Shown piece by piece: positions 2,942-17,547 of a DNA stretch of 64,000 nucleotides (within the stretch, counting starts at the first letter, position 1; each line of letters starts with the position of its first letter). The stretch is from an uncultured Burkholderiales bacterium (GTDB lineage: Bacteria; Pseudomonadota; Gammaproteobacteria; Burkholderiales; JAEUOS01): NCBI GenBank assembly GCA_964443245.1, contig CAYUEG010000001.1:34526-98525 (forward strand), written 5' to 3'. Under the pieces are notes generated by a model. The model searched no databases. It saw only the letters and a program-made list of their open reading frames with translations, and was not told the DNA's origin. The position numbers and the translations under genes were made by a program.

Positions 2942-4714
2942 ATGCCAGCCGTCGACTCCACGATCACTTATCGTCTGTTTTGTAGCGATCCGCGCGCGCA
3001 TCTGTTTCGCGTCGTCCTCACCGTGCACCATCCGGACCCGGCCGGCTGCGTGCTGTCGCTCCCGGCCTGGATTCCGGGAAGCTACATGATTCGCGAATTC
3101 GCCCGCAACATCGGGCCCATTCGCGCACGAAGCGGGCGGCGCAGCGTCGCATTGACGAAGGTCGATAAGCACACTTGGCATGCCGCCGCGTGCGACGGCG
3201 CCCTGGAGGTGGAATACGAAGTCTATGCCTGGGACCTCTCCGTACGTTCCGCACACCTGGACGAGAGCCATGCATTCTTTAACGGTTCGAGTGTGTTTCT
3301 GAGCGTCCATGGCCATGAGCAGGCGCGCCACCTCGTGCAATTGGTACGGCCGGCCGGAAGACGGTATGCCAATTGGGCTGTCGCTACAACGCTTGCGAGA
3401 GCGCCGGCCACACGAGATCGCGGCTTTGGCAGCTATTACGCCAACAGCTACGATGAACTGATCGACCATCCGGTCGAAATGGGCCAGTTCACGTGGGCCA
3501 CGTTTGAAGCCTGTGGCGTGCCCCATGCCGTCGCCATCACCGGACTGCACGATTGCGATACCCAACGCCTGTGTGCCGATCTGAAAAAGGTGTGCGAAAC
3601 GCAGATCCGCTTCTTCCATGGGCCGCAAGCGTCACATCAATCCCCACCATTCTCGCGCTATCTGTTCCTCGTCATGGCGGTGGGCGAGGGGTATGGTGGG
3701 CTGGAACATCGCAGCTCGACGGCGCTCCTGTGCTCCCGCAATGATCTGCCTTTTCCCTCAATGGGCGCTGCAACGGAGGCCTATCGCGGTTTTCTCGGCT
3801 TATGCAGCCATGAGTATTTTCATGCGTGGAATGTCAAGCAACTGAAGCCGGCCGTCTTTGCGCCGTACGATCTGACGCGCGAGAACTACACGCGTCTGCT
3901 GTGGGCCTTTGAAGGCATTACCAGCTATTACGATGACGTCATGCTGTTACGGGCGGGGGTGATCTCCAGACAGGAATATCTGGACACGCTGGCGCGTGCG
4001 ATACGCGGGGTGCTACGCGGCGCTGGCAGACTCAAGCAATCGGTGGCCGAATCCAGTTTTGACGCCTGGATCAAGTACTACCGGCAGGACGAGAACGCTC
4101 CCAATTCGGTGGTGAGCTACTACACCAAGGGCGCATTGGTCGCCCTGTGCATCGACCTGATGCTGCGGCAGGCCTCGGATGGCAGGCGGTCACTGGATGA
4201 TGTGATGCGCAAGCTGTGGCGCGAGCATGGCGCAACTGGCCAGGGAGTGCCGGAAGCGGGCGTCGAATCAGCGGTACTGGACGTAGCGACTCCCGGGTTG
4301 CGCCGTCGCATGGCGCGGTTTCTCCGCGATGCCGTTCATGGCACGACCGAGTTGCCCCTCAAAGCGCTATTGAAAACGGCGGGTTTTGATCTGCGCGTCT
4401 CACCGGGGGTAGCAAATGCGCTCGGCGCGCGCACAGCCCGCAGTGCCGGCGGCGTCAAGCTGACCCACGTGCTTGACCAAGGTGCAGCGCAGCGCGCCGG
4501 CCTTTCGGCGGGCGACGAAGTCATTGCCTTGAATGGAATCCGGGTCAGCGCCGACACCTTCGAGGGCTTGCTCGCCCGTCTGCCGAAACAGGCTCGGATC
4601 GACGTGCACGCATTCCGGCGCGACGAACTCATCACGCGGGTGCTCACGCCAAGCGAAGGCGAAATCGAGGTCTCGCTGAAGCCTGTTGAGGCTGTGGGTA
4701 CCTCTAGAGATTGA
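2942..4714 (+). CDS. M61 family metallopeptidase with C-terminal PDZ domain
   Basis: 590 aa. HExxH zinc motif within CSHEYFHAWNVK, and a PDZ-like GLSAGDEVIALNG near the C-terminus. Confidence 0.8.
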   Translation: MPAVDSTITYRLFCSDPRAHLFRVVLTVHHPDPAGCVLSLPAWIPGSYMIREFARNIGPIRARSGRRSVALTKVDKHTWHAAACDGALEVEYEVYAWDLSVRSAHLDESHAFFNGSSVFLSVHGHEQARHLVQLVRPAGRRYANWAVATTLARAPATRDRGFGSYYANSYDELIDHPVEMGQFTWATFEACGVPHAVAITGLHDCDTQRLCADLKKVCETQIRFFHGPQASHQSPPFSRYLFLVMAVGEGYGGLEHRSSTALLCSRNDLPFPSMGAATEAYRGFLGLCSHEYFHAWNVKQLKPAVFAPYDLTRENYTRLLWAFEGITSYYDDVMLLRAGVISRQEYLDTLARAIRGVLRGAGRLKQSVAESSFDAWIKYYRQDENAPNSVVSYYTKGALVALCIDLMLRQASDGRRSLDDVMRKLWREHGATGQGVPEAGVESAVLDVATPGLRRRMARFLRDAVHGTTELPLKALLKTAGFDLRVSPGVANALGARTARSAGGVKLTHVLDQGAAQRAGLSAGDEVIALNGIRVSADTFEGLLARLPKQARIDVHAFRRDELITRVLTPSEGEIEVSLKPVEAVGTSRD

Positions 4715-6296
4715 CGCCCGGTATCCGCGACAGATCCACTTCGTCAATCTGCTCCGGGTTGAGAAACTCTTCGGCGTACTTGAGGTAAACCTTTTCCCGG
4801 ATGAACACATCGAAGAGATCCGGGTCCACATGGCCGTTGAGCTTGAACTTTCCGAGAATCTCGAGCGATTCGGTAAGCGTCTTGCCCTTCTTGTAGGGTC
4901 GATCGCGTGCAGTCAGGGCCTCAAAAATGTCCGCAATTCCCATGACCCGTGCCTGCACGCTCATCTGGTCGCGCTTCAAGCCCTTCGGATAACCCTTGCC
5001 ATCCATGCGCTCGTGGTGGCCTCCGGCATACTCCGGAACATTCTTCAGGTGCTTTGGCCAAGGCAGGGTCTCGAGCATCTTGATCGTGGCCACGATGTGG
5101 TTGTTGATCACTTCCCGTTCTTCTGCGGTGAGCGTACCTGCCCGTATCGTCAGGTTCTTCAGTTCGTCAGGTGAAAGAAAATCGCTCTCTGCGCCAGAAA
5201 CGTCGCGCCAGCGGTAGCCGGCAATGCGCTTGACGCGGGCAATGTCGTCTTCCTTCATGAACTCGCCACCGACATTGGCACGACGCAGGAACGCACGATC
5301 CTCCTCGATCAACTGCAGTTTTTCGTCAGCCGCCGCCCGGGTCATCTCGCCCTTGAGGACGGCAATTTCGATATCGCGCTTGAGCACTTCAAAACGCGTA
5401 TCGACCATATGTATCCGGTCGAATATGGTCTCCAGCTTGGTGGCCTTGTCAACCACATGCACCGGGGTCGTGACCTTGCCACAGTCGTGGAGCAGCCCGG
5501 CGATCTTGAGTTCGTAACGATCGCGGTCGGTCATCGTGAAGTCCTTGAGCGGACCCACGTCGGTATTGTTTACAGCCTCGGCCAGCATCATGGTCAGGCT
5601 GGGTACCCGCTGGCAATGCCCGCCGGTGTAGGGTGACTTCTCGTCAATGGCAGTGTTCATCACGTTGATGAACGACTCAAAGAGTTGCTCCAGCTGCAGA
5701 ATCAGGTTGCGATTGGTCAGTGCGATCGCCGCCTGCGAAGCCAGGCTCTCCGCCAATCGCTGATCAGCATCCGAAAAGGTCGTGACCTTGCCGGTCACCG
5801 GATCCAGACGGTTGAGTAACTGCAAAACACCGATGATCTCGTTCTCATGATCCCGCATGGGGATGGTGAGAAACGAAGTCGAGCGGTAGCCCGTCTTCTT
5901 GTCGAACGCGCGGGTGCCGGTGAAATCGAAGCCTTCCGCCGTATAGGCATCCGCAATGTTGACAGTATCACCCGTGAGGGCGGCATAGGCTGCCACCATG
6001 TTCCGGTTGGGCTTGCCATCATCCTCGTACAGCTTGATCGGATAAAACGTAATCGGACTTCCCGACGTGCCGCCGAGATGGATGTTCAACGAATCGTTGA
6101 GCAGGATTTCGAAGTTGAGTTTGTCACCATCGATGACCCGATACAGGGTACCGCCATCTGCCTGAGTGATGTGCTTCGCCGCTTGCAGAATCTTGTCAAG
6201 GAGCGCGTTGATATCACGCTCCTGCGACAGGGCCGCCCCCACCGCATTGAGTTGTTCAAGCCGCCTGAACAGCTCCTCGACTGAAACCGAAGTCAC
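4704..6296 (-). CDS. GAF domain-containing HD-GYP phosphodiesterase (predicted c-di-GMP hydrolase)
   Basis: N-terminal GAF (FDKKTGYRSTSFLTIPM...EIIGVLQLLN), an HD motif (LLHDCGK) and GGHHERMDGKGYPKG. GTG start at 6296 overlaps the upstream stop (GTGA). Confidence 0.85.
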   Translation of the reverse strand: MTSVSVEELFRRLEQLNAVGAALSQERDINALLDKILQAAKHITQADGGTLYRVIDGDKLNFEILLNDSLNIHLGGTSGSPITFYPIKLYEDDGKPNRNMVAAYAALTGDTVNIADAYTAEGFDFTGTRAFDKKTGYRSTSFLTIPMRDHENEIIGVLQLLNRLDPVTGKVTTFSDADQRLAESLASQAAIALTNRNLILQLEQLFESFINVMNTAIDEKSPYTGGHCQRVPSLTMMLAEAVNNTDVGPLKDFTMTDRDRYELKIAGLLHDCGKVTTPVHVVDKATKLETIFDRIHMVDTRFEVLKRDIEIAVLKGEMTRAAADEKLQLIEEDRAFLRRANVGGEFMKEDDIARVKRIAGYRWRDVSGAESDFLSPDELKNLTIRAGTLTAEEREVINNHIVATIKMLETLPWPKHLKNVPEYAGGHHERMDGKGYPKGLKRDQMSVQARVMGIADIFEALTARDRPYKKGKTLTESLEILGKFKLNGHVDPDLFDVFIREKVYLKYAEEFLNPEQIDEVDLSRIPGVNL

Positions 6297-8668
6297 TTGA
6301 TGCAGACTGCCCTAACTTGTTTGAGATCGGTCAGGCCCATCAGGACCTTCTCCATGCCATCCATCTTCAGCGTGTTCATGCCCTCTTCCACGGCAGCAGT
6401 GAACAAGGCGGCCACACGCGCCTTCTCCTGAATCATTTTCTTCAACACCTCGGTGGCGATCATCAACTCGTGCAAACCCGCGCGGCCGCGATACCCGGTG
6501 TTGGAGCACTTCTCGCAACCCTTGGGGCGATACAGGGTCAGCTTGCCATCCTTGCCGTACTCCTCAATCCAGCGATCGTAGAGCTTCTTGAATTGACCTT
6601 GGGGATCCGCTTTCCAGACCGGTGTCTTGACAAGTTCTTCCGCGTATTCGGTGATGAACTGCTTGAGTTCGGTTGCATCCGGATGGTAGGGCTCCTTGCA
6701 ATCCGAGCACAGGCGCTTGGCAAGACGCTGGGCCAGGATCCCCAGGAGCGCATCCCCGAAGTTGAAGGGGTCGCAGCCCATGTCGAGCAGGCGGATGACG
6801 GCCTCTGGCGCGCTGTTGGTGTGCAGCGTAGCGAACACCAGGTGGCCGGTGAGCGATGCTTCGATGCCGGTGTTGGTCGTCTCGGCATCGCGCATCTCAC
6901 CCACCATGATGATGTCCGGATCGGCGCGCAGGAAAGCCTTCATGACGACTGCGAAGTCGAGGCCTGCCTTCTTGTTTACCTGCACCTGGCGCAGGCCCTT
7001 TTGCGTAATCTCGACCGGATCCTCGGCAGTCCAGATCTTGGTGTCAACGGTGTTCAGAAAGCCGAGCACGGAGTGCAGTGTTGTGGTCTTGCCGGAACCG
7101 GTCGGGCCGCAAACAAAAAACAGCCCATACGGCTTGCTTACCGTCTTCTTGAGGTTCTCGCTGTTGTATTTGGTCAGCCCCAGCTTGTCGATCGGGATGG
7201 GTTCACCCGCGGCAAGGATACGCATGACCACGTCTTCGACACCACCCTGGGTCGGGATCGTCGCGACTCGCAGCTCGATATCGAGCGGGCCAAACTTCTT
7301 GAACTTGATCTTGCCGTCCTGCGGCTTGCGCTTTTCCGAAATGTCGAGATCGCACATGATCTTCAGACGTGCCGCAATGGCCGCACGATAGCTGGCGGGT
7401 ATCTCGATGTAGTTCATCAGAGAGCCGTCCTTGCGAAACCGGATCTCGGTCTTTGCCTTGCCAGGATAGGGCTCGATATGGATGTCCGACACACCCATGT
7501 TGTAGGCGTCGACAATGATCTTGTTGACCAGCTTGACGAGTTCATTGTCGGCCGCAGCATCGACGTCATCGGTGGAATTGCCGAGAGAATCCACCGCTTC
7601 ATCGTCCCCCATGCCAGACAGCAGGTCATCGATAGAGCTGGCATCCGCCACCTCGCCAAAGAAACTCGCGAGCGTCTGCTTGAACTCAATACGTGTCGTG
7701 ACGCGATAGGCAATCTTCATTGCCCGCGGAAACACGTTGTTGACGATGCGCGAACTCTTGACCCGCTCCGGATCAAGACACATCACCACAAGCCCTTCCT
7801 TGGCGTCGTCAATCGGAATCCATTCGCTGGACTCGACATAATCACGCTTCAGGTTCTTGAGCAGGTCCATCGGCTTGATGCGGTCTGCCTTGAACGGCTC
7901 ATAGGGCACACCAAAAAACTTTGACAGTCCTGCCCCGATGGCGGGAATCTTGACCTGAAATTCGGTGGTCAGTACCTCTTCGATATCGATGCCCTTGCGT
8001 CGTGCCGAACGCGTCGCCAGATCAAACTCCTGTGCCGACAGTACTGCATCCGCGACCAGATAGTCATACTTGGTTTTGACGGGCTGCGCCGATTTCTGCC
8101 GCTGACGAAAGGCAATCGCCAGAGTTTGGGTCAACCCGGCAACGCCCTCCTCTTCCAGTGCACTGAACGGCTGACCCGACTTGTTGTTGATGATCTGGAC
8201 AACACCAATCAATTCATTGGCCTGAGCGTCCACAATCGGTGCAACCAGCATCTGCTTGGTGCGGTAACCGGTTCGCTTGTCCACCTCCTGCAGAAAGCGC
8301 AAGTTTGGATTATGCGATTTCAGCTCTGCTTCGTCGTACACGTCCTTGATGTTGATGACTTTCTTGGACAAAGCCACATAACCGGCAATGCTCTGCTCGG
8401 CGATGGGCAGTTTCAAGTCCTTGAACGAATTCAGCCCCGTCTTGACCTTCGAAACAATCGAAGCCTTGTCCTCGCCCATCGAGTAGATTGTCAGGCGATC
8501 AGCATTGAACAGGGTGCAGATCTCCTGACTGACCTCCAACATGATCTCGTCGACGTTGTTGGTCGCATGGATCCGGTTGGTGACAGTCTGCAGGTTCTTC
8601 TGAAAATTCAGTTTCAGATTGACATCCGGCGCCTGCGCCGCCGGTTTCGGACTCAACACTGCGCTCAT
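6293..8668 (-). CDS. GspE/PilB-family secretion-type ATPase with N-terminal GAF domain
   Basis: Walker A GPTGSGKT (7085-7108), Walker B DPDIIMVGEMRD, His box GHLVFATLHTNSA, and a CSDC...CEKC zinc motif. T2SSE_N-like segment at aa ~200-310 and GAF at aa ~40-188 (VDKRTGYRTKQMLVAPI). ATG at 8668 preceded by GAGGTGG. Confidence 0.85.
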   Translation of the reverse strand: MSAVLSPKPAAQAPDVNLKLNFQKNLQTVTNRIHATNNVDEIMLEVSQEICTLFNADRLTIYSMGEDKASIVSKVKTGLNSFKDLKLPIAEQSIAGYVALSKKVINIKDVYDEAELKSHNPNLRFLQEVDKRTGYRTKQMLVAPIVDAQANELIGVVQIINNKSGQPFSALEEEGVAGLTQTLAIAFRQRQKSAQPVKTKYDYLVADAVLSAQEFDLATRSARRKGIDIEEVLTTEFQVKIPAIGAGLSKFFGVPYEPFKADRIKPMDLLKNLKRDYVESSEWIPIDDAKEGLVVMCLDPERVKSSRIVNNVFPRAMKIAYRVTTRIEFKQTLASFFGEVADASSIDDLLSGMGDDEAVDSLGNSTDDVDAAADNELVKLVNKIIVDAYNMGVSDIHIEPYPGKAKTEIRFRKDGSLMNYIEIPASYRAAIAARLKIMCDLDISEKRKPQDGKIKFKKFGPLDIELRVATIPTQGGVEDVVMRILAAGEPIPIDKLGLTKYNSENLKKTVSKPYGLFFVCGPTGSGKTTTLHSVLGFLNTVDTKIWTAEDPVEITQKGLRQVQVNKKAGLDFAVVMKAFLRADPDIIMVGEMRDAETTNTGIEASLTGHLVFATLHTNSAPEAVIRLLDMGCDPFNFGDALLGILAQRLAKRLCSDCKEPYHPDATELKQFITEYAEELVKTPVWKADPQGQFKKLYDRWIEEYGKDGKLTLYRPKGCEKCSNTGYRGRAGLHELMIATEVLKKMIQEKARVAALFTAAVEEGMNTLKMDGMEKVLMGLTDLKQVRAVCIK

Positions 8669-8708
8669 AACCACCTCACGCGATGACAGCTTTTCGTTTG
8701 ACCAAAAT

Positions 8709-9788
8709 TCATTGCGAAGGACCCCGTGAAGCCCAAAGTCCTCCCTCCAGAAGCGCTACCTTGAATCCACGATGCGCCAGCAAAAACGCTGCGGCCGCGC
8801 TTCGACGGCCGCTCTGGCAATACACCACATACTCCTTGCTCTTGTCCAGAACCGGAAACGCGTTGCGAATCTCTGCCAGCGGTACGTTGATTGCGGCCGA
8901 CAGGTGATCGTACTGGTATTCGGAAGGATAGCGGACGTCCAGCCACTGCGCACCCGCCGCCACTTTCTCTTTCCCCGCCTCCATGTGGACCCTGTTCAGC
9001 AATGGCTCCTTGAGCAGTGCAATGAAATCCTGTTTGGCGAGACGGAGCAGCACACCATCCAGCTTCATCGTCACCGTGGCATTGCGCTTCGCTTCGGACA
9101 CCAGTGCTTCCTCGCCAAACGCATCACCGCTCTTCAAATCCGCAAGGACTACCACGACACCGCCAACCAGACGCGTTACCTGCGCACGACCCGACTCGAT
9201 GACGTAATAATAGTCGCCTTCATCTCCCTCACGAATCACAACGTCGCCGGATTTGACCTCCACCCGAAAAAAACGATTCAGCAATTCGCCAATATGGGCC
9301 GATGGCAGGTTTCCGAACGCACCCGTCCTCAGGTTATTGACACTAAAGACCCCCGACATGACGTTCCAGGAGCTTGGCACCGGAGGTTCCGCAGCCGCGA
9401 GTGTCTTGAAACGGCCGGTTCGGGTAGCGTCAAACTTTGCCAGCTGATCCCAGGTCATCATGATGTCCAGCATGTCACTATCGATCCGGATCAATTCGAT
9501 CGCACTCAAAGCGCGGCCGCGCAAAATCGGTGTACTGCGGAACAAAGGATCACGCGCTGCCACGGAGCCCGCTTCAACAATCTCCTCTGATCCGTCTTCA
9601 AACACCAAAGCCACTTTGCCCGACAGGAGGTAGGAGACCTGATCCGCAGCAGATTTCATTCTGAAGGGATCTTGCCCTTCCGCCATGTTCTCGGTGTAAC
9701 ACAAGTCGGAGAATTCCTGAAGGCGAGCCTCCGACAACGCCGACAAGGGCTCAAATTGGCGGAGCAGCGCAGAAGAAATCGAGCTCAT
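8709..9788 (-). CDS. Cyclic nucleotide-binding domain protein with C-terminal rhodanese domain
   Basis: Canonical CNB segment GDYYYVIESG...GDAFGEEALVSEAKRNATV, preceded by a degenerate CNB-like N-terminus. The rhodanese domain has an intact active-site loop CQSGRRS (Cys codon 8817-8819). Confidence 0.8.
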   Translation of the reverse strand: MSSISSALLRQFEPLSALSEARLQEFSDLCYTENMAEGQDPFRMKSAADQVSYLLSGKVALVFEDGSEEIVEAGSVAARDPLFRSTPILRGRALSAIELIRIDSDMLDIMMTWDQLAKFDATRTGRFKTLAAAEPPVPSSWNVMSGVFSVNNLRTGAFGNLPSAHIGELLNRFFRVEVKSGDVVIREGDEGDYYYVIESGRAQVTRLVGGVVVVLADLKSGDAFGEEALVSEAKRNATVTMKLDGVLLRLAKQDFIALLKEPLLNRVHMEAGKEKVAAGAQWLDVRYPSEYQYDHLSAAINVPLAEIRNAFPVLDKSKEYVVYCQSGRRSAAAAFLLAHRGFKVALLEGGLWASRGPSQ

Positions 9789-9793
9789 GGCCG

Positions 9794-10561
9794 CTAGAAC
9801 TCGAAAATCTGGCCGTTTTGGAGCATGCGCGGTTTGTAGTCACCGGCAAACTCCTCGATCTCCTGCATCGTCAGTTCGATTTCACCCGGCTTCAAGTGGG
9901 TAATGAAGATTTCCGCACTGCGCTCCAGCTTTGCCAATTCCTCGGCGAGCAAGCTCGGGCACAGGTGCTTGGATGCAATCGCCAGTTGCTTCTCGCGATT
10001 GCAAAACGCGGTCTCAATGATCAAGTACTTCAAATTGGGAATCCGGTTGACCACTTTCCAGAGCGGATCGTTGGTAAAGGTATCCCCCGAAAACACCAGG
10101 CTATGCTTGCCGCTATTGATCTGGTAACCCACCGCGGGCACTGTGTGGTTCGCAGGAAGCACCGTCAGTTTGCGCCCATCAATGGCAAGGCTCTGGCCTT
10201 CCTTGATGGTCTGATAGCGCATGAACGGCTTTTCCGCTGTCGGAATGGCAGTGAAATCCGGCCAGACGTTCCAGTTGAAGATATGTTTCTTGAGCGTATC
10301 GAGCGTCTCCTCGATCGCATAGATCGTAAGAGGCTTGTCACGCATCGCGCCCACGGTATCGACAATAAACGGGATGGTCGCAATATGGTCCAGGTGCGAG
10401 TGCGTCAGAAAAATGTGGTCAATCATCGACATCTCCGTCAGGGAGAGGTCGGTAACACCGGTGCCTGCATCAATCAGGATGTCGTTGTCGATGCGCAATG
10501 AGGTCGTGCGGAGATGTTTGCCCCCGATCCCTCCGCTGCATCCAAGCACTTTGACCTTCAT
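9794..10561 (-). CDS. Class II 3',5'-cyclic-nucleotide phosphodiesterase (metallo-beta-lactamase fold)
   Basis: 255 aa. MKVKVLGCSGGIGG N-terminus and an HSHLDH (HxHxDH) metal motif, typical of the CpdP/PDE1-like class II cAMP phosphodiesterases. Confidence 0.75.
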   Translation of the reverse strand: MKVKVLGCSGGIGGKHLRTTSLRIDNDILIDAGTGVTDLSLTEMSMIDHIFLTHSHLDHIATIPFIVDTVGAMRDKPLTIYAIEETLDTLKKHIFNWNVWPDFTAIPTAEKPFMRYQTIKEGQSLAIDGRKLTVLPANHTVPAVGYQINSGKHSLVFSGDTFTNDPLWKVVNRIPNLKYLIIETAFCNREKQLAIASKHLCPSLLAEELAKLERSAEIFITHLKPGEIELTMQEIEEFAGDYKPRMLQNGQIFEF

Positions 10562-10583: not shown

Positions 10584-12836
10584 TCACTTCTCGTCGAATG
10601 TGGTCACGCCGTCCCAATTCGCACCTGGCGGGTTCTTGCGGAACTGGGCCACGCGATCTGCATATTTCTGATACAGGTACGAATCCGGATTCATGCGCTG
10701 AAGGTTGAGCAGGTGCATGTCAAACTGATCCCAGGACTGGGCGCGGTAGGCCTTGAGGGCTTCACGCCAGATCTTGATCTCGTCCTTCAGTTCCTTGCTG
10801 GCTTCGGCCTCCAGGCAAAGGGGCTCGAAAATGGCCACAGGTTCGTTCTTCCCCTTCACCCGGATTCGATCCAGCTCACGATACAGCACATCGCGCACCA
10901 GCCTCTCGGTGTTCTCCCCCACCATGACGCCGACGCCGTACTCCTTGGTACGCCCCTCCAGTCGAGAAGCCAGATTAACGGCATCGCCCATTGCGGTGTA
11001 GGCCTTGCGTACTTTCGATCCCATGTCGCCGACGCGCACGACACCGGAGTTGAGGCCGATCCCGATCTTCAAATCCGGCCAACCCTTGGCGATGAACTTG
11101 GCACGCAGGTCCTCGCACGCCTTCTGCATTTCGAGCGCGCTCACAATGCCCTGCCGGGCATGCTCCGGGTCCGGAACCGGCGCACCCCAGAAAGCCATGA
11201 TGCAATCGCCTATGTACTTGTCCAGCGTGCCACGATGGCTCGAAATGATTGCCGACATGGTCGTCAGAAAATCATTGATGTAGAGCGCCAAGTCCGCCGC
11301 CGAAAGACTTTCGGAAATGGTCGTGAAGCCGCGTACATCCGAAAACAGGATCGTCAACTCGGCTTCTGCCGGCTGCATGCTGTACTTTTCGGGATCCTTG
11401 GCCATCTCGTCAACCAGTTCTGGAGGCACGTATTGGCCAAACAGCTCGGTAAACTGCCTCTTGCTGCGACTCTCCACGAAGTAGCCATAAGCCATATTCA
11501 ATGTGAATAACCCGGCAGTCATCAATAACGAGGCTGCAAGCGGAATCACAGTGTCTGCCTGGGTATAGATCACATAGTTGAGTGCAATGATCAACAGCAT
11601 AGCCACCACTGCCACCAGGGTTGCACGCAACGGGGACAGAAATGGCATGAGCATTGCCAGGGTAATGCCACCAATCAGGAGCAGTACCACCTCTGCTCCA
11701 ACGGTAAAGGCAGGCCGTTGTTTGAAGTTTTGGGACAACATGCCGGAGAGGAGGTTGGCGTGGATCTCTACCCCAGGATAGGCTTCACCCACAGGCGTGG
11801 AGCGCAAATCCAGCAGGCCTGGTGCGGTAGTGCCCCAAATGGCGATCTTCCCTCTCAGATCTTCCTTACGCGCCTTGCCTTCCCAAATGTCTCCCAATGA
11901 CACATAACGAAAGCTGTTGGCTGTGGGCCCACCGCGCCCCCGATAGGGCACCAGGGCACTCACGGTCTTGTCGACCGGTATCGTGAATGTCCGATTGGCA
12001 GCATTCAATTCCAGCCATTCCATCCCGCTGTAATTCTTGGATAGAAAGCGTTCCGGTGGATAACCCGGCTGCACCTTGGGCGATCCCAAGAGCGTGCGGA
12101 ACATGGCAAGGGAAAGGGACTCGTAGTACTCGCCGCGATACTCGGAGAGCATGGGAACCCTGCGCACCACGCCATCATGATCGACAATCGGGTTGAACAG
12201 GCCTGCAGAGTAAGCCGCCTTTTGCAGCGCCGGCAGGTTGCCGCCGTGCCCATTCCACTGGAACCAGTCAATGTTGCGTCCCTTGAAGGAACCGGCCGGC
12301 ATCACAGGGGCCGGGAGCGCGCCACTCTTTTCTGCATCCGCTTCACTCGACAAGTAATAGCCCAGCACCACAGGCTTGCCGGCAATCGATTTCGCAAACT
12401 GATCATCGAAATCCAGGCTGGGACGCAATTGCTGCAACTTGGCCTGGAACTCGGGCACACCTTGCAATTCGGTCTTTGCGAGCGCCTCGAGTGTTGCGAT
12501 GCCAGAACTGGTATCAGGTTCGGCAAATACGACGTCGAAGCCCACCATCGCAACGCCGTAATCGTCCTTGCCGTCACCCATGATCTTGTTCATGAGTTTG
12601 GCCATTTTGTCGCGATTCCACGGCCAACGGCCCAACTTACCCAAACTCTTCTCGTCAATATCAAGAATGACGATTCTGTCATCAAGCTTGGACGGCATCG
12701 TCAACTTCATGCGCGCATCGTAGATGATGGCGTCGAGCTGACTGATGAAGCGGATATTGAAAATCTCGGCTGCATGGGCGAGAAACACCAGCAGCACTGC
12801 AATCCCTAAGCTGATTCGGACGATGTGCTGCTTCAA
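10584..12836 (-). CDS. CHASE2 sensor-containing class III adenylate/guanylate cyclase (predicted adenylate cyclase)
   Basis: N-terminal TM helix, a CHASE2-like periplasmic region, then a TM bundle. Cyclase core FSDVRGFT...LDKYIGDCIMAFWG...YTAMGDAVNLASRLE. TTG start at 12836 preceded by GGGAGG 5 nt upstream. Confidence 0.85.
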   Translation of the reverse strand: MKQHIVRISLGIAVLLVFLAHAAEIFNIRFISQLDAIIYDARMKLTMPSKLDDRIVILDIDEKSLGKLGRWPWNRDKMAKLMNKIMGDGKDDYGVAMVGFDVVFAEPDTSSGIATLEALAKTELQGVPEFQAKLQQLRPSLDFDDQFAKSIAGKPVVLGYYLSSEADAEKSGALPAPVMPAGSFKGRNIDWFQWNGHGGNLPALQKAAYSAGLFNPIVDHDGVVRRVPMLSEYRGEYYESLSLAMFRTLLGSPKVQPGYPPERFLSKNYSGMEWLELNAANRTFTIPVDKTVSALVPYRGRGGPTANSFRYVSLGDIWEGKARKEDLRGKIAIWGTTAPGLLDLRSTPVGEAYPGVEIHANLLSGMLSQNFKQRPAFTVGAEVVLLLIGGITLAMLMPFLSPLRATLVAVVAMLLIIALNYVIYTQADTVIPLAASLLMTAGLFTLNMAYGYFVESRSKRQFTELFGQYVPPELVDEMAKDPEKYSMQPAEAELTILFSDVRGFTTISESLSAADLALYINDFLTTMSAIISSHRGTLDKYIGDCIMAFWGAPVPDPEHARQGIVSALEMQKACEDLRAKFIAKGWPDLKIGIGLNSGVVRVGDMGSKVRKAYTAMGDAVNLASRLEGRTKEYGVGVMVGENTERLVRDVLYRELDRIRVKGKNEPVAIFEPLCLEAEASKELKDEIKIWREALKAYRAQSWDQFDMHLLNLQRMNPDSYLYQKYADRVAQFRKNPPGANWDGVTTFDEK

Positions 12837-12894: not shown

Positions 12895-13635
12895 CTACTT
12901 GTAGAAAAACTCCATCTTGGTGCCCGCGATCTCGATCACGTCGTGGTCGTTCAGTGGATGCGCCTGGGCGTCAAGCGCCTTGCCATTGACGACCGGGAAG
13001 GTCGCACCTTCCACGTGGGTGATGAAAAAGCCCTGCGGGCGGCGAGTGATGACGGCCACTTGCACACCCGGTTTGCCCAAGGTTGTCAGTGCCTTGGTGA
13101 GCACAAGTTCCTTGCCCACATTTGCACCCGACAACAGCTGGATTGCCCCCTGTTTCGCGGGCGCAGCGGCCGGGGCCGGGGCAGCAGCTGCCGCCGGGGC
13201 AGCCGCTGCGGCAGCCGGGCCTTTGACCGTACGGTCGTCATCGGCCTTGGCAGCCACCGGCGCGGCAGCAGCTGGGGCCGGCTTCGGCATCGAACCAGGA
13301 CGCAACACCATCGTCTTTTCGAAATCGGCAGCAGCAGCAGCCTTTGGCGCCTCATTGATGTATTTGAGCTTGTATTTGCCCAACTCAATGACGTCATTGG
13401 GTTGCAGGAAATGCTTCTTGATCGGCTGGCCGTTAACCAATGTTCCATTGGTCGACCCCAAGTCCTCCAGGAATGAGTCGTTGAGGATCGTCACGATGAC
13501 CGCATGCTCGCCAGAGACAGCCAGATTGTCGATCTGGATGTCATTGTGCGGCTTGCGGCCGATCGTGGTGCGCTCCTTGCTCAGGGTAATTTCCTTGAGC
13601 ACCAAGCCATCCATGCTGAGAATTAGCTTTGCCAT
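12895..13635 (-). CDS. FHA domain protein (N-terminal canonical FHA, Ala/Pro-rich linker, C-terminal FHA-like domain)
   Basis: TIGRKPHNDIQIDNLAVSGEHAVI...GSTNGTLVNG is a canonical FHA core. The second beta-rich domain ends ...DHDVIEIAGTKMEFFYK. Confidence 0.8.
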   Translation of the reverse strand: MAKLILSMDGLVLKEITLSKERTTIGRKPHNDIQIDNLAVSGEHAVIVTILNDSFLEDLGSTNGTLVNGQPIKKHFLQPNDVIELGKYKLKYINEAPKAAAAADFEKTMVLRPGSMPKPAPAAAAPVAAKADDDRTVKGPAAAAAAPAAAAAPAPAAAPAKQGAIQLLSGANVGKELVLTKALTTLGKPGVQVAVITRRPQGFFITHVEGATFPVVNGKALDAQAHPLNDHDVIEIAGTKMEFFYK

Positions 13636-13685: not shown

Positions 13686-14516
13686 TTACTTGAACCATCC
13701 CAAGAACTTGCCAAACATCCCTTTTGCAGCCGGGTATTCCTTCAAAATCTTGACGAGTAGCACGGATACGTTATCACGCCCGCCATTGTCGTTAGCCATC
13801 TGTACAAGCTGCTGCGCGGCCAGATTCAGATTTCCACCGAGCGACTCCAATGCCAGGCCGATTTCAGGGTCTTCCACCATGTCGGACAAGCCGTCCGAGC
13901 AGAGCAGATAGATATCCCCGGGTTGGGTGTCGTAGTCGTGAATTTCAGGTTCTACCGTCGGGTCAATGCCGAGGGCGCGCGTGACCAGATTCTTGTTCTG
14001 GGAATGCTTCGCCTCTTCTTCCGTGATCATGCCGCTGTCAATCTGCTCCTGCAGCAATGAATGGTCCCGTGTAACCTGCGAGAGGACACCATCACGCATT
14101 CGGTAAAGACGTGAATCGCCGATATGTGCAACCGTCATCCGGTTATCGTAAAAGACAGCCATCACCAGCGTGGTGCCCATCCCTGAGTATTGCGGTTGCG
14201 ACTGGGACGCTGAATAAATTGACGTATTCGCCTTGGTGATCTGCTCGCGCAACATCCGCGCCGCCATGGTTCCCGCCTCCGCCCCCTGAGGGTCGGGTTC
14301 AAAGGGTGCATGCTGCGCCATGGCGGCCTGCAGTTCCGTCATCAGCACTGTTGTTGCCATACCGCTGGCGACTTCACCAGCGTTGTAACCGCCCATGCCA
14401 TCGGCCAGAATCGCCAACCCGTGGCGTACATCGTTCGCTATCGAGTCCTCGTTATGAGACCGCACCATACCCGGATCGGTATGGCCGACGATCTCGATCG
14501 CGTCAGAAAGGCTCAT
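13686..14516 (-). CDS. PP2C-family Ser/Thr protein phosphatase (Stp1-like)
   Basis: Motifs RSHNEDS, ADGMGG, SDGLSD and GGRDNVSVLLV. Confidence 0.9.
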   Translation of the reverse strand: MSLSDAIEIVGHTDPGMVRSHNEDSIANDVRHGLAILADGMGGYNAGEVASGMATTVLMTELQAAMAQHAPFEPDPQGAEAGTMAARMLREQITKANTSIYSASQSQPQYSGMGTTLVMAVFYDNRMTVAHIGDSRLYRMRDGVLSQVTRDHSLLQEQIDSGMITEEEAKHSQNKNLVTRALGIDPTVEPEIHDYDTQPGDIYLLCSDGLSDMVEDPEIGLALESLGGNLNLAAQQLVQMANDNGGRDNVSVLLVKILKEYPAAKGMFGKFLGWFK

Positions 14517-14524
14517 GCTCGATC

Positions 14525-17341
14525 CTATAGGGAGATGTCTACGTCGTCATCCTTGCCAGCAGGTTTGGCACCTGCGGGTTTGGCGGCAGCACCACCCGCG
14601 GGAAGGATGACCGTCTTGTCGGCGTCTGACGTCGCGGCAGGCGCTGCCTGCATCTGCACGGTCCCGCCGGCGTGCGGATTCGGCGCAACCGGAGCCGCAG
14701 GAGCAGCAGGCTTGGGAGTCACGGGCCGCGCCGCCGGAATGTTCATGCCGGTTGACGATGCAGGATTCTCACCGAAGGGCCGGAGCGCGGCCGCGAACTC
14801 TTCGCCAGTCTGAAAGCGTTCATCGGCGTCCTTTGCCATGGCGCGCTTGAGCACCTCTGCAAGTCCTTCAGGCACGTCCGGATTCAACGTGCGAACGTCT
14901 GCAGGTTCTTCATTCGCAATCTTGAACATCAACTGGGCCATCGAATCGCCAACAAACGGCAACCTGCCGGTCAGCATCTGGTAAATGCTGACGGCAAGGG
15001 AGAACAAATCGGAACGCCCATCGACCTTCTTGCCCGAGAGTTGTTCGGGCGACATGTAAGACGGCGTACCGAGCACCATCCCGGTCTTGGTCTTGGACGA
15101 GTCTGTGACCCGTGCGATACCGAAATCAGCGACCTTCGGGTTATCGCCCTCAAGGTCATACATGATGTTCGCCGGCTTGATGTCGCGGTGCACGACATTC
15201 TGGCGATGTGCGTATCCGAGTGCATCAGCGACTCTCGCAAAGATCGAGACCACGCGCGGAATTGGCAACAGCGATTCCGGCTTGGTGTAGGGCACCAAAT
15301 CCTGCCCTTTGAGCAATTCCATGGCGATGTAGCACAGGTCGTGCTCGTCGCCAGTGTCGTAAATGGTGACAATGTTCTGGTGATTGAGGCGGCCGGCGGT
15401 CTCTGCCTCGCGGAAGAAGCGCTCCTTTGCTTCCGCCAGTTCGTCTGCTTCGAACTCCTGGGAGAGCGCCATCGTCTTGATGGCAACCGAGCGACCGATC
15501 TTCGGATCCTTGCCGAGATAGACCACGCCCATGGCACCCTTGCCGAGTTCCTTCTCGATCTGGTACCTGCCCAGCATGGGCTTCTCGCCCTGACCGGTCG
15601 CATCCAGGATGCTCGCATTGCTGCGACCGCTGGCACCGCCCAGAATCACCGTTTCAGAAAGGTTCTTGGCACGGGCGATCTTCTGCTCCAGATCCTTGTA
15701 CTTCGGATCGTAGCCGTGCATGTGTTCATACACGGCCTGAGCCTTGTTGAATTGCCGCTTCCGCTCGAAATCGAGCGCCAGGTTGTACAGGTTGTCCATC
15801 AAGGCGCCGTCAAATGGCACTTTGCGAAACTTGTCAAACGCAATATCAAGCTGACCCTGCCCCTGAAACGCCAGACCCAGCATGCGGTTTGACTCAGCAG
15901 ACTCAACATCGGACTTCTGCTTGCCGGCCTCCGTCACGATGAAGCGTTTGGTGGTGAGCAAAAGATGACCAACGAGCAACAGCGTGGCCGGCACCATCAG
16001 CTGGATCCACATGCCTGCGGACGTCATCAGCAGAAAATGGACTACGAGCAAACCCGCAAGCAATCCAAGCGTGATCAGTCCGGCAGGCTTGGCTTTCAGT
16101 TTTGGCAGCATCCCGATCAGGTAGGCAGCGATCAGAATGAATATCAGGAGCTCAACCCAGATCGCCCAGGTCGGCGCGACAAAAAAGTGCTCGGAAAGGA
16201 TACTGGACACGGAGTGTGCCATTTTCTCCACCGGGGTCATCGCGGCCGAGATCGGCGTCGGAAAACTGGTACCGACACCCGCCGCCGTGGGGCCGATCAG
16301 CACAATCTTGCCAGCGTAGTTCTCCGCCTTGATCTTCCCTGACAGCACGTCATAGAAGGAATCCAGCTGGAAGGCCTTTTTGCCGTCCCGATCCTTGTAG
16401 TAGTACGTGTACATCTGGTTCAGGGGATCTGTGGTAATGGCAAGCTTGCCGAGCTTGAGCTGCTCGCCCCAATTTACCTTGATGTCGGAAATACCGAGAT
16501 TGAGGCTCTTGGCAGCGATCATCACCGAGTAAGACGGGAAGTACCTGTCAAAGTACTGCACCACCAAGGGTTCGGTGCGTACGCCGCCATCGACGTCAGG
16601 CAAGTCGTTCAGATGTCCAAGACCCGCAGCTGCCGTACCCAATTGCTCAATCGGCAATTGAATGGCCGCAGAGGGAACCGCATTGCCCCCCTTGTCCTCA
16701 AACGAGCTCTTTTCGGTAAATTTCGGCAGGCTCTTGTCCGGCTTGCCGCGCGGGTCGCCCAGTGTAAACACCAGAGGCAACATGACATTGCCAGCCTTCG
16801 TGTAGCTTTCCGCAAGTCTGCGGTCGGTATTGAGCGCGACTTCGGCTTCCTTGAGCAAAGCACCGAATTGAGCCAGTTCCGCCGAACCCTGAACAGGTTG
16901 GGCCGCCGCTTCCACTGCAGGGGCCGACGTCACGGCCACTGCCCCGGGGACAGCGGGGGCCGCTTGGGCACCTGCCGGCTTTCCGCCGTACAGCTCGATC
17001 AACTTGTTGATGTAAACCAGACCGGGATCTTGCTGCGCTTCAAAGAAGAACACGGTGTTGCCGATAACCTTCACCTTTGCTCCGGCGAGCAAGTCGGTCA
17101 TTTTGGCGTGGATGTCACGACTCCAGGGCCAACGGCCAATATTGTTGATGCTCTGGTCGTCAATCGCGATGATCGCGATTTGCTTGTTCGGCTCCTTGGA
17201 AGAAGCCTTGACCCCAAGATCGTAGGCTTTGCGCTCAAGGCTTTGCAGCAGGTCACCACCGCGCAAGAACAAAAAAACGAGCGCGATGACCACCCCCAGA
17301 AACCAATCTGATTTCCAGAAATCCGACTTGATTTTCGCCAT
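14525..17341 (-). CDS. CHASE2 sensor-containing transmembrane Ser/Thr protein kinase
   Basis: N-terminal TM helix, CHASE2-like region, TM bundle and a TPR-like segment. C-terminal Hanks kinase: GKGAMGVVY, VAIK, HRDIKPAN, DFGIA, SPE. Pro/Ala-rich tail. ATG at 17341 preceded by GAGGAGGA; the ORF-track start at 17404 is less likely. Confidence 0.85.
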   Translation of the reverse strand: MAKIKSDFWKSDWFLGVVIALVFLFLRGGDLLQSLERKAYDLGVKASSKEPNKQIAIIAIDDQSINNIGRWPWSRDIHAKMTDLLAGAKVKVIGNTVFFFEAQQDPGLVYINKLIELYGGKPAGAQAAPAVPGAVAVTSAPAVEAAAQPVQGSAELAQFGALLKEAEVALNTDRRLAESYTKAGNVMLPLVFTLGDPRGKPDKSLPKFTEKSSFEDKGGNAVPSAAIQLPIEQLGTAAAGLGHLNDLPDVDGGVRTEPLVVQYFDRYFPSYSVMIAAKSLNLGISDIKVNWGEQLKLGKLAITTDPLNQMYTYYYKDRDGKKAFQLDSFYDVLSGKIKAENYAGKIVLIGPTAAGVGTSFPTPISAAMTPVEKMAHSVSSILSEHFFVAPTWAIWVELLIFILIAAYLIGMLPKLKAKPAGLITLGLLAGLLVVHFLLMTSAGMWIQLMVPATLLLVGHLLLTTKRFIVTEAGKQKSDVESAESNRMLGLAFQGQGQLDIAFDKFRKVPFDGALMDNLYNLALDFERKRQFNKAQAVYEHMHGYDPKYKDLEQKIARAKNLSETVILGGASGRSNASILDATGQGEKPMLGRYQIEKELGKGAMGVVYLGKDPKIGRSVAIKTMALSQEFEADELAEAKERFFREAETAGRLNHQNIVTIYDTGDEHDLCYIAMELLKGQDLVPYTKPESLLPIPRVVSIFARVADALGYAHRQNVVHRDIKPANIMYDLEGDNPKVADFGIARVTDSSKTKTGMVLGTPSYMSPEQLSGKKVDGRSDLFSLAVSIYQMLTGRLPFVGDSMAQLMFKIANEEPADVRTLNPDVPEGLAEVLKRAMAKDADERFQTGEEFAAALRPFGENPASSTGMNIPAARPVTPKPAAPAAPVAPNPHAGGTVQMQAAPAATSDADKTVILPAGGAAAKPAGAKPAGKDDDVDISL

Positions 17342-17517
17342 CGTGTCCTCCTCGCGCTTGTGTTTTTCTCGCGGAACGCGCCACTGCATCACTTCGGACT
17401 GCAACTACCTCGCCACGCCCTGATGAAGCCGCCAAACCGGCAAAGAGCAGGGCGTAACGCTCAAGATTCTACGGCAAAACTGGAAAAAAGAGGGAATTTC
17501 GCAAAATAAACAGCATG

Positions 17518-17547
17518 ATGATACGCATTCTTGTAGTTGACTATCAA
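17518..17547 (-). promoter_or_regulatory. Candidate sigma70 promoter for the eight-gene signalling operon
   Basis: On the minus strand: TTGATA (17542-17547), an 18-nt spacer, then TATCAT (17518-17523). It lies in the only AT-rich stretch between the terC terminator and the kinase start. Pattern match only. Confidence 0.3.

Follow-up and report, generated by a model that had tools for sequence, protein, structure and literature searches.

What does a cyclic-nucleotide sensor control when it is fused to a rhodanese? This question is raised by a gene in a 64,000-nucleotide stretch of DNA from an uncultured Burkholderiales bacterium (contig CAYUEG010000001.1, positions 34,526 to 98,525 of the forward strand; the whole stretch is called the window hereafter). 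The gene encodes a protein, designated CNB-Rhod here, in which a degenerate cyclic-nucleotide-binding (CNB) domain, a canonical CNB domain and a rhodanese domain follow one another. An identical 359-amino acid (aa) protein is present in public assemblies of an uncultured Burkholderiales lineage. Judged by domain scans and alignments, CNB domains and rhodanese are genuinely paired here, and the CNB-CNB-rhodanese arrangement is strictly conserved and occurs widely among Beta- and Gammaproteobacteria. As to its function, we give serious weight, though somewhat less than an even chance, to the explanation that CNB-Rhod is a receptor for cyclic AMP (cAMP), in which the hinge/lid helix of the canonical CNB domain gates the rhodanese cysteine, Cys324, for persulfide transfer or for Cys-dependent partner contacts.

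Domain Architecture of CNB-Rhod

The anatomy of the protein is a pseudo-CNB, then a CNB, then a rhodanese, as established by segment-wise Pfam scores, AlphaFold (AF2) models and fold matches. In the Pfam scan of the full-length protein, cNMP_binding is found in two stretches (E 6e-24, best at residues 176-260) and Rhodanese at residues 277-351 (E 1.8e-15). With both matches lying within 359 aa, the fusion of a CNB domain to a catalytically intact-looking rhodanese, proposed in a preliminary description of the locus, is indeed seen. Segments were also scanned singly against the Pfam gathering score of 27.5 for cNMP_binding and the cut-off of 22.2 bits for Rhodanese. Every domain folds in the full-length AF2 model (predicted local distance difference test score, pLDDT, 73; predicted template modeling score, pTM, 0.44), and its top fold matches in the PDB are the tandem CNB-A/B domains of PKG and PKA-R, over 250-300 alignment columns. 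Because of the pTM of 0.44 and a disordered linker, the inter-domain orientation in this model was discarded. The identity of a CRP/FNR transcription factor was also rejected: no HTH_Crp match follows the CNB domain in Pfam, the CRP equivalog scores 21 vs 266 bits, and the C-terminus, without a helix-turn-helix, is the rhodanese.

The second CNB domain (CNB-B) has its best PDB sequence matches in PKG, PKA-R, Epac, MsPat and Bd1971. The ligand contacts of its phosphate-binding cassette are present as F224-G225-E226 (Gly-Glu) and R235-N236-A237 (Arg-x-Ala). The cassette codons translate to GDAFGEEALVSEAKRNATV, confirming a canonical CNB whose cassette reads R-N-A, and this reading is invariant in the query and 80 orthologues. 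In a wider alignment, R-N-A is found in 137/145 rows (144 cluster representatives plus the query), and Asn236 is, by this alignment, a hallmark of the CNB-Rhod family. Asn after the cassette Arg looks unusual yet not disqualifying, because the canonical cassette motif of Kannan et al. (2007; PMC2246266), …R209[ANQV], admits it. The hinge/lid helix of CNB-B occupies residues 252-266 with F255, L258, L259 and E261-P262-L263-L264, among which F255 and L258 are conserved family-wide and E261-P262-L263-L264 in the close clade. This helix runs almost directly into the rhodanese domain.

In the active-site loop of the rhodanese, CQSGRRS, Cys stands at the first position and five residues follow, giving a six-residue, Arg-rich loop of the sulfurtransferase type; the loop and its Cys codon, as read earlier, are borne out by translation (Table 1). 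The nearest solved relatives are PspE (2jtq), TVG0868615 (3gk5) and the rhodanese domains of CoA-persulfide/disulfide reductases, and PspE is the best match both in NCBIfam (NF007627) and among rhodanese domains in the PDB. PspE and the reductase rhodanese domains are catalytically active carriers of persulfide. PspE and GlpE share the fold and a catalytic Cys placed first in a six-residue cationic loop, which is CNAGRQS in PspE. Unlike them, CNB-Rhod is predicted to be cytoplasmic, is fused to a sensor, and scores far under the equivalog cut-offs (51.3 vs 102 bits for PspE; 23.5 vs 102 for GlpE, NF001195). By these scores, its rhodanese is a relative and not an orthologue of PspE/GlpE. A Cdc25/Acr2-type phosphatase or arsenate reductase working for the kinase/PP2C/FHA arm of the operon (see below) is excluded, because the C-X4-R-S loop is one residue shorter than the seven-residue C-X5-R loop of Cdc25, CE[FY]SXXR (Bordo and Bork, 2002, as quoted in PMC2887360), and has Ser, not Arg, at +6.

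A strong terminator-like hairpin lies inside the coding sequence at 8791-8812 (-), consisting of an 8 bp stem with 7 GC pairs followed by TTTTT, and spans the codons for G327-L337. The T-run is found in just 14/79 relatives. The hairpin was dismissed as a by-product of the GC-rich codons for GRRSAAAAF; terminator-like sites in the region are not more numerous than shuffle expectation.

The N-terminal domain is of a different kind. The first 141 aa alone give 20.4 bits for cNMP_binding (E 5e-4), under the gathering score. A separate AF2 model of residues 1-127 (pLDDT 84.9, pTM 0.74) finds CNB domains in all of its 50 best PDB matches by Foldseek (probability 1.00, TM 0.52-0.65), GlxR, HCN2, PKG, PKA-R and SthK among them. 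Both ligand contacts, Gly-Glu and Arg-x-Ala, are lost (VAAR…GRALS in the query, where V76 replaces Glu), and the segment equivalent to the cassette is poorly conserved. Since the fold is kept but these contacts are gone, the earlier wording “degenerate CNB-like N-terminus” is right, and the domain is, as far as its residues tell, a pseudo-CNB without an intact ligand site. A long C-helix bearing T112-W113-D114, which is invariant in the betaproteobacterial clade but not family-wide, closes the domain. The protein begins ~10 residues ahead of it, with no N-terminal extension. C30 was considered as a second conserved redox Cys and rejected, because only the close clade keeps it invariant and the wider family lacks it.

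Between the two CNB domains, pLDDT falls below 50 at residues 119-157 of the full-length model. Inside this otherwise variable, low-confidence linker, W141, S145, G146 and F148 (nucleotides 9345-9368, (-)) are invariant, and the W141-F148 motif could be an interaction or capping motif.

Conservation and Synteny in Betaproteobacteria

A word-indexed search of 5.8 billion proteins gave 4,216 matches, of which the best 120 were inspected. These 120 have the same two Pfam domains at 57-94% identity, are mostly ~360 aa long, and come mostly from Burkholderiales metagenome bins. Automatic labels on the relatives are “cyclic nucleotide-binding domain-containing protein” and “rhodanese-related sulfurtransferase.” For a closer comparison, 80 betaproteobacterial loci were taken from Burkholderiales, Rhodocyclaceae/Propionivibrio, Gallionellaceae/Sideroxyarcus, Nitrosomonadales and Methylophilaceae, and their orthologues (49-94% identity) were aligned with the query in 81 rows. 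Invariant in 81/81 are F224, G225, E226, R235, N236 and A237 of CNB-B, and D284, R286, E290 and the loop C324-Q-[ST]-G-R-R-S of the rhodanese, including Q325, R328, R329 and S330. Chance comes nowhere near explaining such invariance.

The eight proteins of the operon in the window were mapped onto the 80 loci, and a gene was counted when it was found in the same order and on the same strand at loci where the contig reaches far enough. The CNB-Rhod fusion is present in all 80 loci, usually together with the other seven genes (Table 1). A lineage-specific accidental fusion, named in the preliminary description as a refuting outcome, is ruled out by this synteny and by the motif conservation in all 80 related loci. 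Because the phosphodiesterase (PDE) and cyclase genes are syntenic and the motifs are invariant in 81/81 rows, the fusion is, on this comparative evidence, an obligatory and selected component of a cyclase/PDE module. Furthermore, in Methylophilaceae-type loci the operon is reduced to cyclase, PDE and CNB-Rhod, a retention that marks CNB-Rhod as the predicted core receptor.

Two of these reduced operons have neighbors related to the cell surface. One (L061 11132-16070 (+)) adjoins an ABC-2 permease, a Wzt-type ABC ATPase, a sulfotransferase-like gene and a GT2 gene, and the other (L072 11092-13520 (-)) adjoins a Wzy_C ligase and an ABC ATPase. Such surface-polysaccharide neighbors may be a coincidence or a clue to the output pathway.

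Table 1. Features of the CNB-Rhod gene and its operon in the window, with the proportion of assessable betaproteobacterial loci that have each gene alongside CNB-Rhod.
Feature	Coordinates	Strand	Basis and remarks	Loci
GAF-HD-GYP phosphodiesterase	4704-6296	(-)	Pfam HD_5/GAF; start overlaps ATPase stop by 4 nt	51/54
GAF-T2SSE_N-PilB/GspE-type ATPase	6293-8674	(-)	Pfam, NCBIfam; 34 bp downstream of CNB-Rhod	63/68
Coding sequence of CNB(degenerate)-CNB-rhodanese protein	8709-9788	(-)	Open reading frame translation, Pfam; ATG start, 359 aa	
Single-domain rhodanese, residues 267-353	8730-8990	(-)	Pfam, 61.5 bits when scanned singly	
Active-site loop C324-Q-S-G-R-R-S330	8799-8819	(-)	Translation; Cys324 codon 8817-8819	
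Canonical CNB domain CNB-B, residues 158-266	8991-9317	(-)	Pfam, 69 bits when scanned singly (cut-off 27.5)	
Phosphate-binding cassette GDAFGEEALVSEAKRNATV	9072-9128	(-)	Translation; FGEEAL…R-N-A-T-V; Asn236 codon 9081-9083	
Inter-domain linker, residues 126-157	9318-9413	(-)	Predicted disordered; contains W141, S145, G146, F148	
N-terminal degenerate CNB-fold domain, residues 1-125	9414-9788	(-)	Pfam (sub-threshold), AF2, Foldseek	
MBL-fold hydrolase, class-II cyclic-nucleotide phosphodiesterase signature HSHLDH	9794-10561	(-)	Pfam PDEase_II, Lactamase_B_2	79/79 (directly upstream)
CHASE2-class III nucleotide cyclase, predicted adenylate cyclase (class IIIb)	10584-12836	(-)	Pfam CHASE2, Guanylate_cyc	70/72
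FHA protein	12895-13635	(-)	Pfam	62/67
PP2C phosphatase	13686-14516	(-)	Pfam	60/65
CHASE2-Ser/Thr kinase	14525-17404	(-)	Pfam	48/55

The Operon and Its Cyclic Nucleotide

The operon looks like a self-contained module for a cyclic nucleoside monophosphate (cNMP), most probably cAMP, with one synthase, one hydrolase and three receptors. By their domains, the predicted receptors are CNB-Rhod, the GAF-ATPase and the GAF-HD-GYP protein, and a CHASE2 kinase/PP2C/FHA arm lies upstream. The hydrolase is an MBL-fold (metallo-β-lactamase-fold) protein that passes the PDEase_II cut-off of 23.7 bits with 59.3 bits, and among solved structures yeast PDE1 (4ojv) is its best relative. Only 5 bp separate the stop of its gene from the CNB-Rhod ATG at 9788, a spacing already noted in the preliminary description and in agreement with the reading frame ends at 9794 and 9788. 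Pairs of MBL and rhodanese exist (CstB, Blh), and the hydrolase was therefore also considered as a persulfide dioxygenase. This candidate gains no support, in view of the PDEase_II score and the kinship with yeast PDE1; the other MBL matches are of the RNase Z or CPSF-like kind, and nothing of the ETHE1 or glyoxalase-II type rises above noise (GloB 25.9 vs 200.8 bits).

Downstream of CNB-Rhod, the ATPase falls just short of the MshEN cut-off (22.3 vs 23.1 bits), and its neighborhood contains no genes for a pilus or for secretion. In the HD-GYP protein, the GAF domain most resembles the cNMP-binding GAF domains of PDE5, CyaB2, PDE2 and PDE10. At the other end, a sigma-70-like site, TTGATA-18-TATCAT at 17518-17547 (-), lies ~115 bp upstream of the CHASE2-kinase start; with 10/12 it is the best of the region and a candidate promoter for the whole eight-gene operon, while sigma-70-like sites are no more frequent in the region than expected from shuffling.

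Which nucleotide is probably made is suggested by the cyclase. Its catalytic domain aligns best with CyaB of P. aeruginosa (PaCyaB, 3r5g) and CyaC of Spirulina (1wc0), and its substrate pair, Lys in GT-DK-IGD and Thr in Y-T-x-x-G, is as in 3r5g and 1wc0. At these positions Cya2 of Synechocystis (2w01) carries Glu and Gly. A Lys…Thr pair typifies class IIIb adenylate cyclases, and Glu…Gly/Cys typifies guanylate cyclases. Because the operon cyclase has Lys…Thr and not Glu…Gly, the ligand of CNB-Rhod is probably cAMP rather than cyclic GMP (cGMP). Thus, of the two nucleotides suggested at the outset, cAMP is favored and cGMP is the less likely one.

Asn236 brings in another thought, namely that it retunes the pocket to cGMP, another cNMP or a related nucleotide, whichever of the functional explanations applies to the protein. 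The residue after the cassette Arg touches the phosphate and, with syn purines, the base edge, as in PKG and HCN; the nearly universal Asn of the family is unlike the solved cAMP/cGMP receptors aligned; and the best GAF matches of the co-operonic HD-GYP protein are the cGMP-binding GAFs of PDE5. We nevertheless hold such a ligand to be quite improbable, given the Lys…Thr pair of adenylate cyclases in place of Glu…Gly/Cys, the inclusion of Asn in the R209[ANQV] motif of Kannan et al. (PMC2246266), and the canonical state of all remaining cNMP contacts.

A cyclase next to a CNB protein also recalls the Pycsar anti-phage systems. PycTIR and PycTM resemble CNB-Rhod in that a CNB domain receives the product of a neighboring class-III-like cyclase; the CNB domain of PycTIR (8jsk) is among the fold matches, and PADLOC gives matches at the domain level only (cyclase to PycC, 100 bits; CNB to PycTIR, 28 bits). 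Unlike Pycsar, with its pyrimidine cyclase and variable defense context, the present system has a housekeeping-like conserved operon with a dedicated PDE, kinase and phosphatase. Its cyclase is of the purine type (Lys…Thr) and bears a CHASE2 membrane sensor, and a toxic effector domain such as a killing TIR or TM domain is absent. Its order and position are vertically conserved in Burkholderiales, Rhodocyclaceae, Gallionellaceae and Nitrosomonadales, unlike a defense island. A Pycsar-like defense function is effectively refuted by the absent killing domain, the cyclase residues and the conserved synteny, and we regard its probability as negligible.

A protein linked so tightly to the enzymes that make and remove its signal might also do no more than soak up cAMP, as a passive buffer or sponge shaping the kinetics of signaling, with a rhodanese of unrelated housekeeping role. 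In line with this, CNB-Rhod evolves fastest among the eight genes, and its conservation is the lowest (a median identity of 54% vs 56-72% for the others). A buffer, however, leaves unexplained why the Cys loop and the CNB site are conserved together and why the cassette is reused as the head of giant proteins (see below), and we consider it very unlikely.

The Wider Family and Giant Proteins

When 1.84 billion cluster representatives (50% identity) were scanned exhaustively with HMMER, 1,185 clusters matched at E<=1e-30. Among 129 full-cassette representatives (34-54% identity), the residues of the phosphate-binding cassette and the Cys loop are 91-100% conserved (C324 98%, G327 95%, R329 91%, S330 97%). 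The universal positions of CNB-B are G181, G191, Y195, G200, V204, R206, A216, G221, F224, G225, E226, L229, R235, N236, A237, M241, F255 and L258, and those of the rhodanese are D284, V285, R286, E290, N301, P303, L304, R308, C324, G327, R329 and S330; D284, R286, E290, P303 and R308 thus accompany the loop itself. In most of the 145 aligned rows the loop reads C-x-[ST]-G-x-R-S, and Cys324 is almost always kept. Family-wide conservation of the N-terminal domain is limited to P14, L18 and G57 in the same 129 representatives, and the sequence divergence of CNB-Rhod is concentrated in this fastest-evolving part. As universal positions lie almost all in CNB-B and the rhodanese, the functional unit is, by this pattern, “ligand site + hinge + Cys loop,” and the sensor site and the catalytic Cys are under strong purifying selection.

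Of the 150 top-ranking cluster representatives, 59 (~40%) exceed 1,000 aa, and 51 stand alone with a length of 330-410 aa. The long proteins carry the entire cassette (query residues ~5-352, ~40% identity) at the extreme N-terminus. Behind it, these giants have 400-1,200 residues rich in E/A/R/Q (coiled coil), one hydrophobic helix ~300 residues before the end, and a C-terminal FGE-sulfatase (SUMF1/EgtB/PvdO) domain, giving a total of 1,000-1,800 aa. Examples are P0155, P0157, P0160, P0162 and P0279, with loci such as L081 10001-13633 and L083 10001-15268. A hydropathy scan places the FGE-type domain in the predicted periplasm and the cassette in the predicted cytoplasm. The giants come from bins of Gammaproteobacteria, Thiogranum included, and the cassette is their sole recognizable cytoplasmic domain set. 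They have a conserved housekeeping neighborhood, with no cyclase or PDE within the ~10 kb fetched on each side.

In the same genomes, a second, stand-alone CNB-Rhod gene (351-353 aa) lies ~7-8 kb downstream of the giant gene (L081 21677-22738; L083 22165-23220). These stand-alone genes adjoin DUF6763, HDOD and FIST genes, and therefore the cassette also operates outside the eight-gene operon. There is one more arrangement: in P0234 (562 aa) an FHA domain is C-terminal to the cassette, CNB-CNB-Rhod-FHA. As a “Rosetta-stone” fusion, it recalls the FHA gene of the operon and is a hint that the cassette may talk to the phospho-threonine (kinase/PP2C/FHA) arm lying ahead of it in the window.

The place of the cassette in the giants, at the tip of a coiled coil opposite the periplasmic FGE-sulfatase-type domain, could also be that of an input head. 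Signal flow in CNB-Rhod would then be reversed, or the protein would detect a coincidence: Cys324 would sense sulfane sulfur, thiosulfate or the redox state, and its persulfidation or oxidation would modulate cAMP affinity or the conformation of the tandem CNB unit, so that “cAMP AND thiol state” is reported to a partner. The same invariant Cys loop and CNB site would serve such a sensor, and the 359-aa protein has no other output domain. On the other hand, CNB domains act as inputs in all characterized cases, and neither the operon nor its hosts (iron oxidizers, methylotrophs, Rhodocyclaceae) point to sulfur sensing. By sequence alone this explanation is inseparable from a cAMP-gated rhodanese; we think it unlikely.

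Alternatively, the protein might be a non-catalytic, cAMP-dependent adaptor whose rhodanese is a docking surface, by analogy with PKA-R or CbpA of P. aeruginosa. Its partner would most plausibly be the adjacent PDE, allowing cAMP feedback, with the cyclase, the GAF-ATPase and the FHA/kinase arm as alternatives. The 100% adjacency to the PDE gene and the 5-bp spacing, which is consistent with translational coupling, agree with an adaptor, as do the existence of the P0234 fusion and the conserved W141…F148 motif, resembling an interaction motif, in the disordered linker. The rhodanese domains of eukaryotic MAPK phosphatases and USP8 are indeed docking modules. But docking rhodaneses normally lose the catalytic Cys, whereas here Cys324 and the cationic loop are 91-98% conserved across the deep family, and in Gammaproteobacteria the cassette is found without a neighboring PDE. 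A purely docking role is thus rather improbable in our estimate.

A Possible Mechanism for cAMP-Gated Rhodanese Activity

If CNB-Rhod is instead a cAMP receptor with a gated Cys324, the following sequence of events can be proposed. The cytoplasmic protein would receive the cyclic nucleotide made by its own operon, most probably cAMP. The source of this nucleotide would be the CHASE2 class IIIb cyclase, encoded two genes upstream, and the gene directly ahead of CNB-Rhod would provide the MBL/class-II-like phosphodiesterase that degrades it. The ligand would bind the second CNB domain, where Gly225 and Glu226 would hold the ribose and Arg235 and Ala237 the phosphate, and the family-specific Asn236 would contact the phosphate or the base edge. 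Binding would shift the hinge/lid helix, as in PKA-R, Epac, mycobacterial Pat (MsPat) and Bd1971. As the helix passes with almost no linker into the rhodanese, its movement may make Cys324, within the cationic loop, more or less exposed or reactive. Persulfide loading, delivery of the persulfide to a target thiol, or contact with a partner through the Cys would in this way come to depend on cAMP. The degenerate N-terminal CNB would serve as a scaffold or docking module. Here, we infer the ligand identity, the allosteric coupling, the sulfurtransferase chemistry and the target from sequence.

In favor of this mechanism speak the domain scores and folds, the conserved cassette, hinge and Cys loop, the kinship of the rhodanese to persulfide carriers, the tie of the gene to the PDE and cyclase, the Lys…Thr pair of the cyclase, the place of the cassette in the giants, and the bacterial precedents MsPat and Bd1971. 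Several observations weigh against it. Asn236 stands where the solved cAMP/cGMP receptors aligned have Ser, Thr or Ala, so that another ligand is conceivable. Two predicted GAF-type cNMP receptors with obvious outputs are already encoded in the operon, which has no sulfur-metabolism gene and no obvious persulfide acceptor. The low inter-domain confidence of the full-length AF2 model does not give the geometry from the lid to the Cys loop. The stand-alone gammaproteobacterial copies lie away from any cyclase or PDE. Finally, the lineage of the window has S297-A298 (8895-8900, (-)) vs P-G in the “LPGA” motif of the family rhodanese, with P at 297 in 67/81 and G at 298 in 75/81 relatives. This is not a sequencing error, because nine of the ten proteins in the 90%-identity cluster share the S-A pair, the remaining one having S-S.

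A bolder form of the proposal is possible but doubtful. In this form, the CNB-CNB-rhodanese cassette would be a cAMP-gated persulfide relay, a new class of bacterial second-messenger effector that answers a cAMP pulse by persulfidating or desulfidating specific target cysteines and so joins cyclic-nucleotide to reactive-sulfur signaling. As targets, one may think of the GAF-PilB-like ATPase or the HD-GYP enzyme of the same operon, or of the cyclase and PDE. The invariant Asn of the cassette would be the hallmark of the class, and the same head would be reused on the giant coiled-coil membrane proteins with a periplasmic FGE-sulfatase-type domain.

Comparison with Known Systems

The tandem CNB-A/CNB-B of PKA-R and PKG is the closest likeness in layout, with two consecutive CNB folds, the second having a canonical cassette and hinge/lid. 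Unlike PKA-R/PKG, CNB-Rhod has a first CNB without a ligand site, no dimerization/docking domain and no kinase-inhibitor sequence; its output is a covalently attached rhodanese and not a released kinase, and its cassette reads R-N-A, not R-A-A or R-T-A. CNB-Rhod belongs to the CNB and rhodanese superfamilies, but membership in the PKA-R/PKG-type regulatory modules was rejected, the first CNB being degenerate and an N-terminal extension lacking. Designs in which a CNB domain gates an enzyme within one polypeptide are MsPat/Rv0998 and Bd1971 of Bdellovibrio (CNB-EAL), both found among the PDB matches (4onu, 6hq2), and by analogy these may be the template for a lid-controlled active site in CNB-Rhod. 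They differ from it in the catalytic domain, GNAT in MsPat and EAL in Bd1971 against a rhodanese here, and in the extra degenerate CNB of CNB-Rhod. CbpA of P. aeruginosa (Endoh and Engel, 2009, as cited in PMC11139211) is a bacterial non-CRP cAMP-binding protein. It reportedly has a degenerate N-terminal and a functional C-terminal CNB, and neither a known enzymatic function nor a rhodanese.

The domain combination itself has been recorded before. Kannan et al. (2007; PMC2246266) list, in their “Other_bacterial” group, CNB attached to a “Rhodanese homology domain,” as a one-line mention without family definition, R-N-A signature, operon context, giant fusions or function. The interpretation in the preliminary description is supported in part, for the three domains, the ligand contacts of the second CNB and the Cys loop. 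The term “unusual effector class” in the preliminary description was thus overstated, as the combination was in the 2007 census, forms 1,185 clusters at the threshold used here, and is routinely annotated automatically. In the literature searched as full text, a coverage largely outside subscription journals, no experimental or dedicated computational study of a CNB-rhodanese protein or of the operon was found.

Implications

Across most bacteria, CRP-type transcription factors are regarded as nearly the sole route of cAMP action (PMC11139211). Non-transcriptional cAMP effectors are few (Pat, Bd1971 and CbpA), and CNB-Rhod is a candidate for another. It belongs to a large, deeply conserved family, which in Betaproteobacteria is tied to its own cyclase and phosphodiesterase. 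Being small and soluble, with clear point mutants (R235A, N236S/A and C324S), the protein makes the question directly testable. If cAMP does gate the rhodanese, this would be the first link of cyclic-nucleotide signaling to persulfide (sulfane-sulfur) chemistry, and it would provide a handle on an eight-gene signaling operon that combines a kinase/phosphatase/FHA arm with a cyclase/PDE pair and three cNMP receptors.

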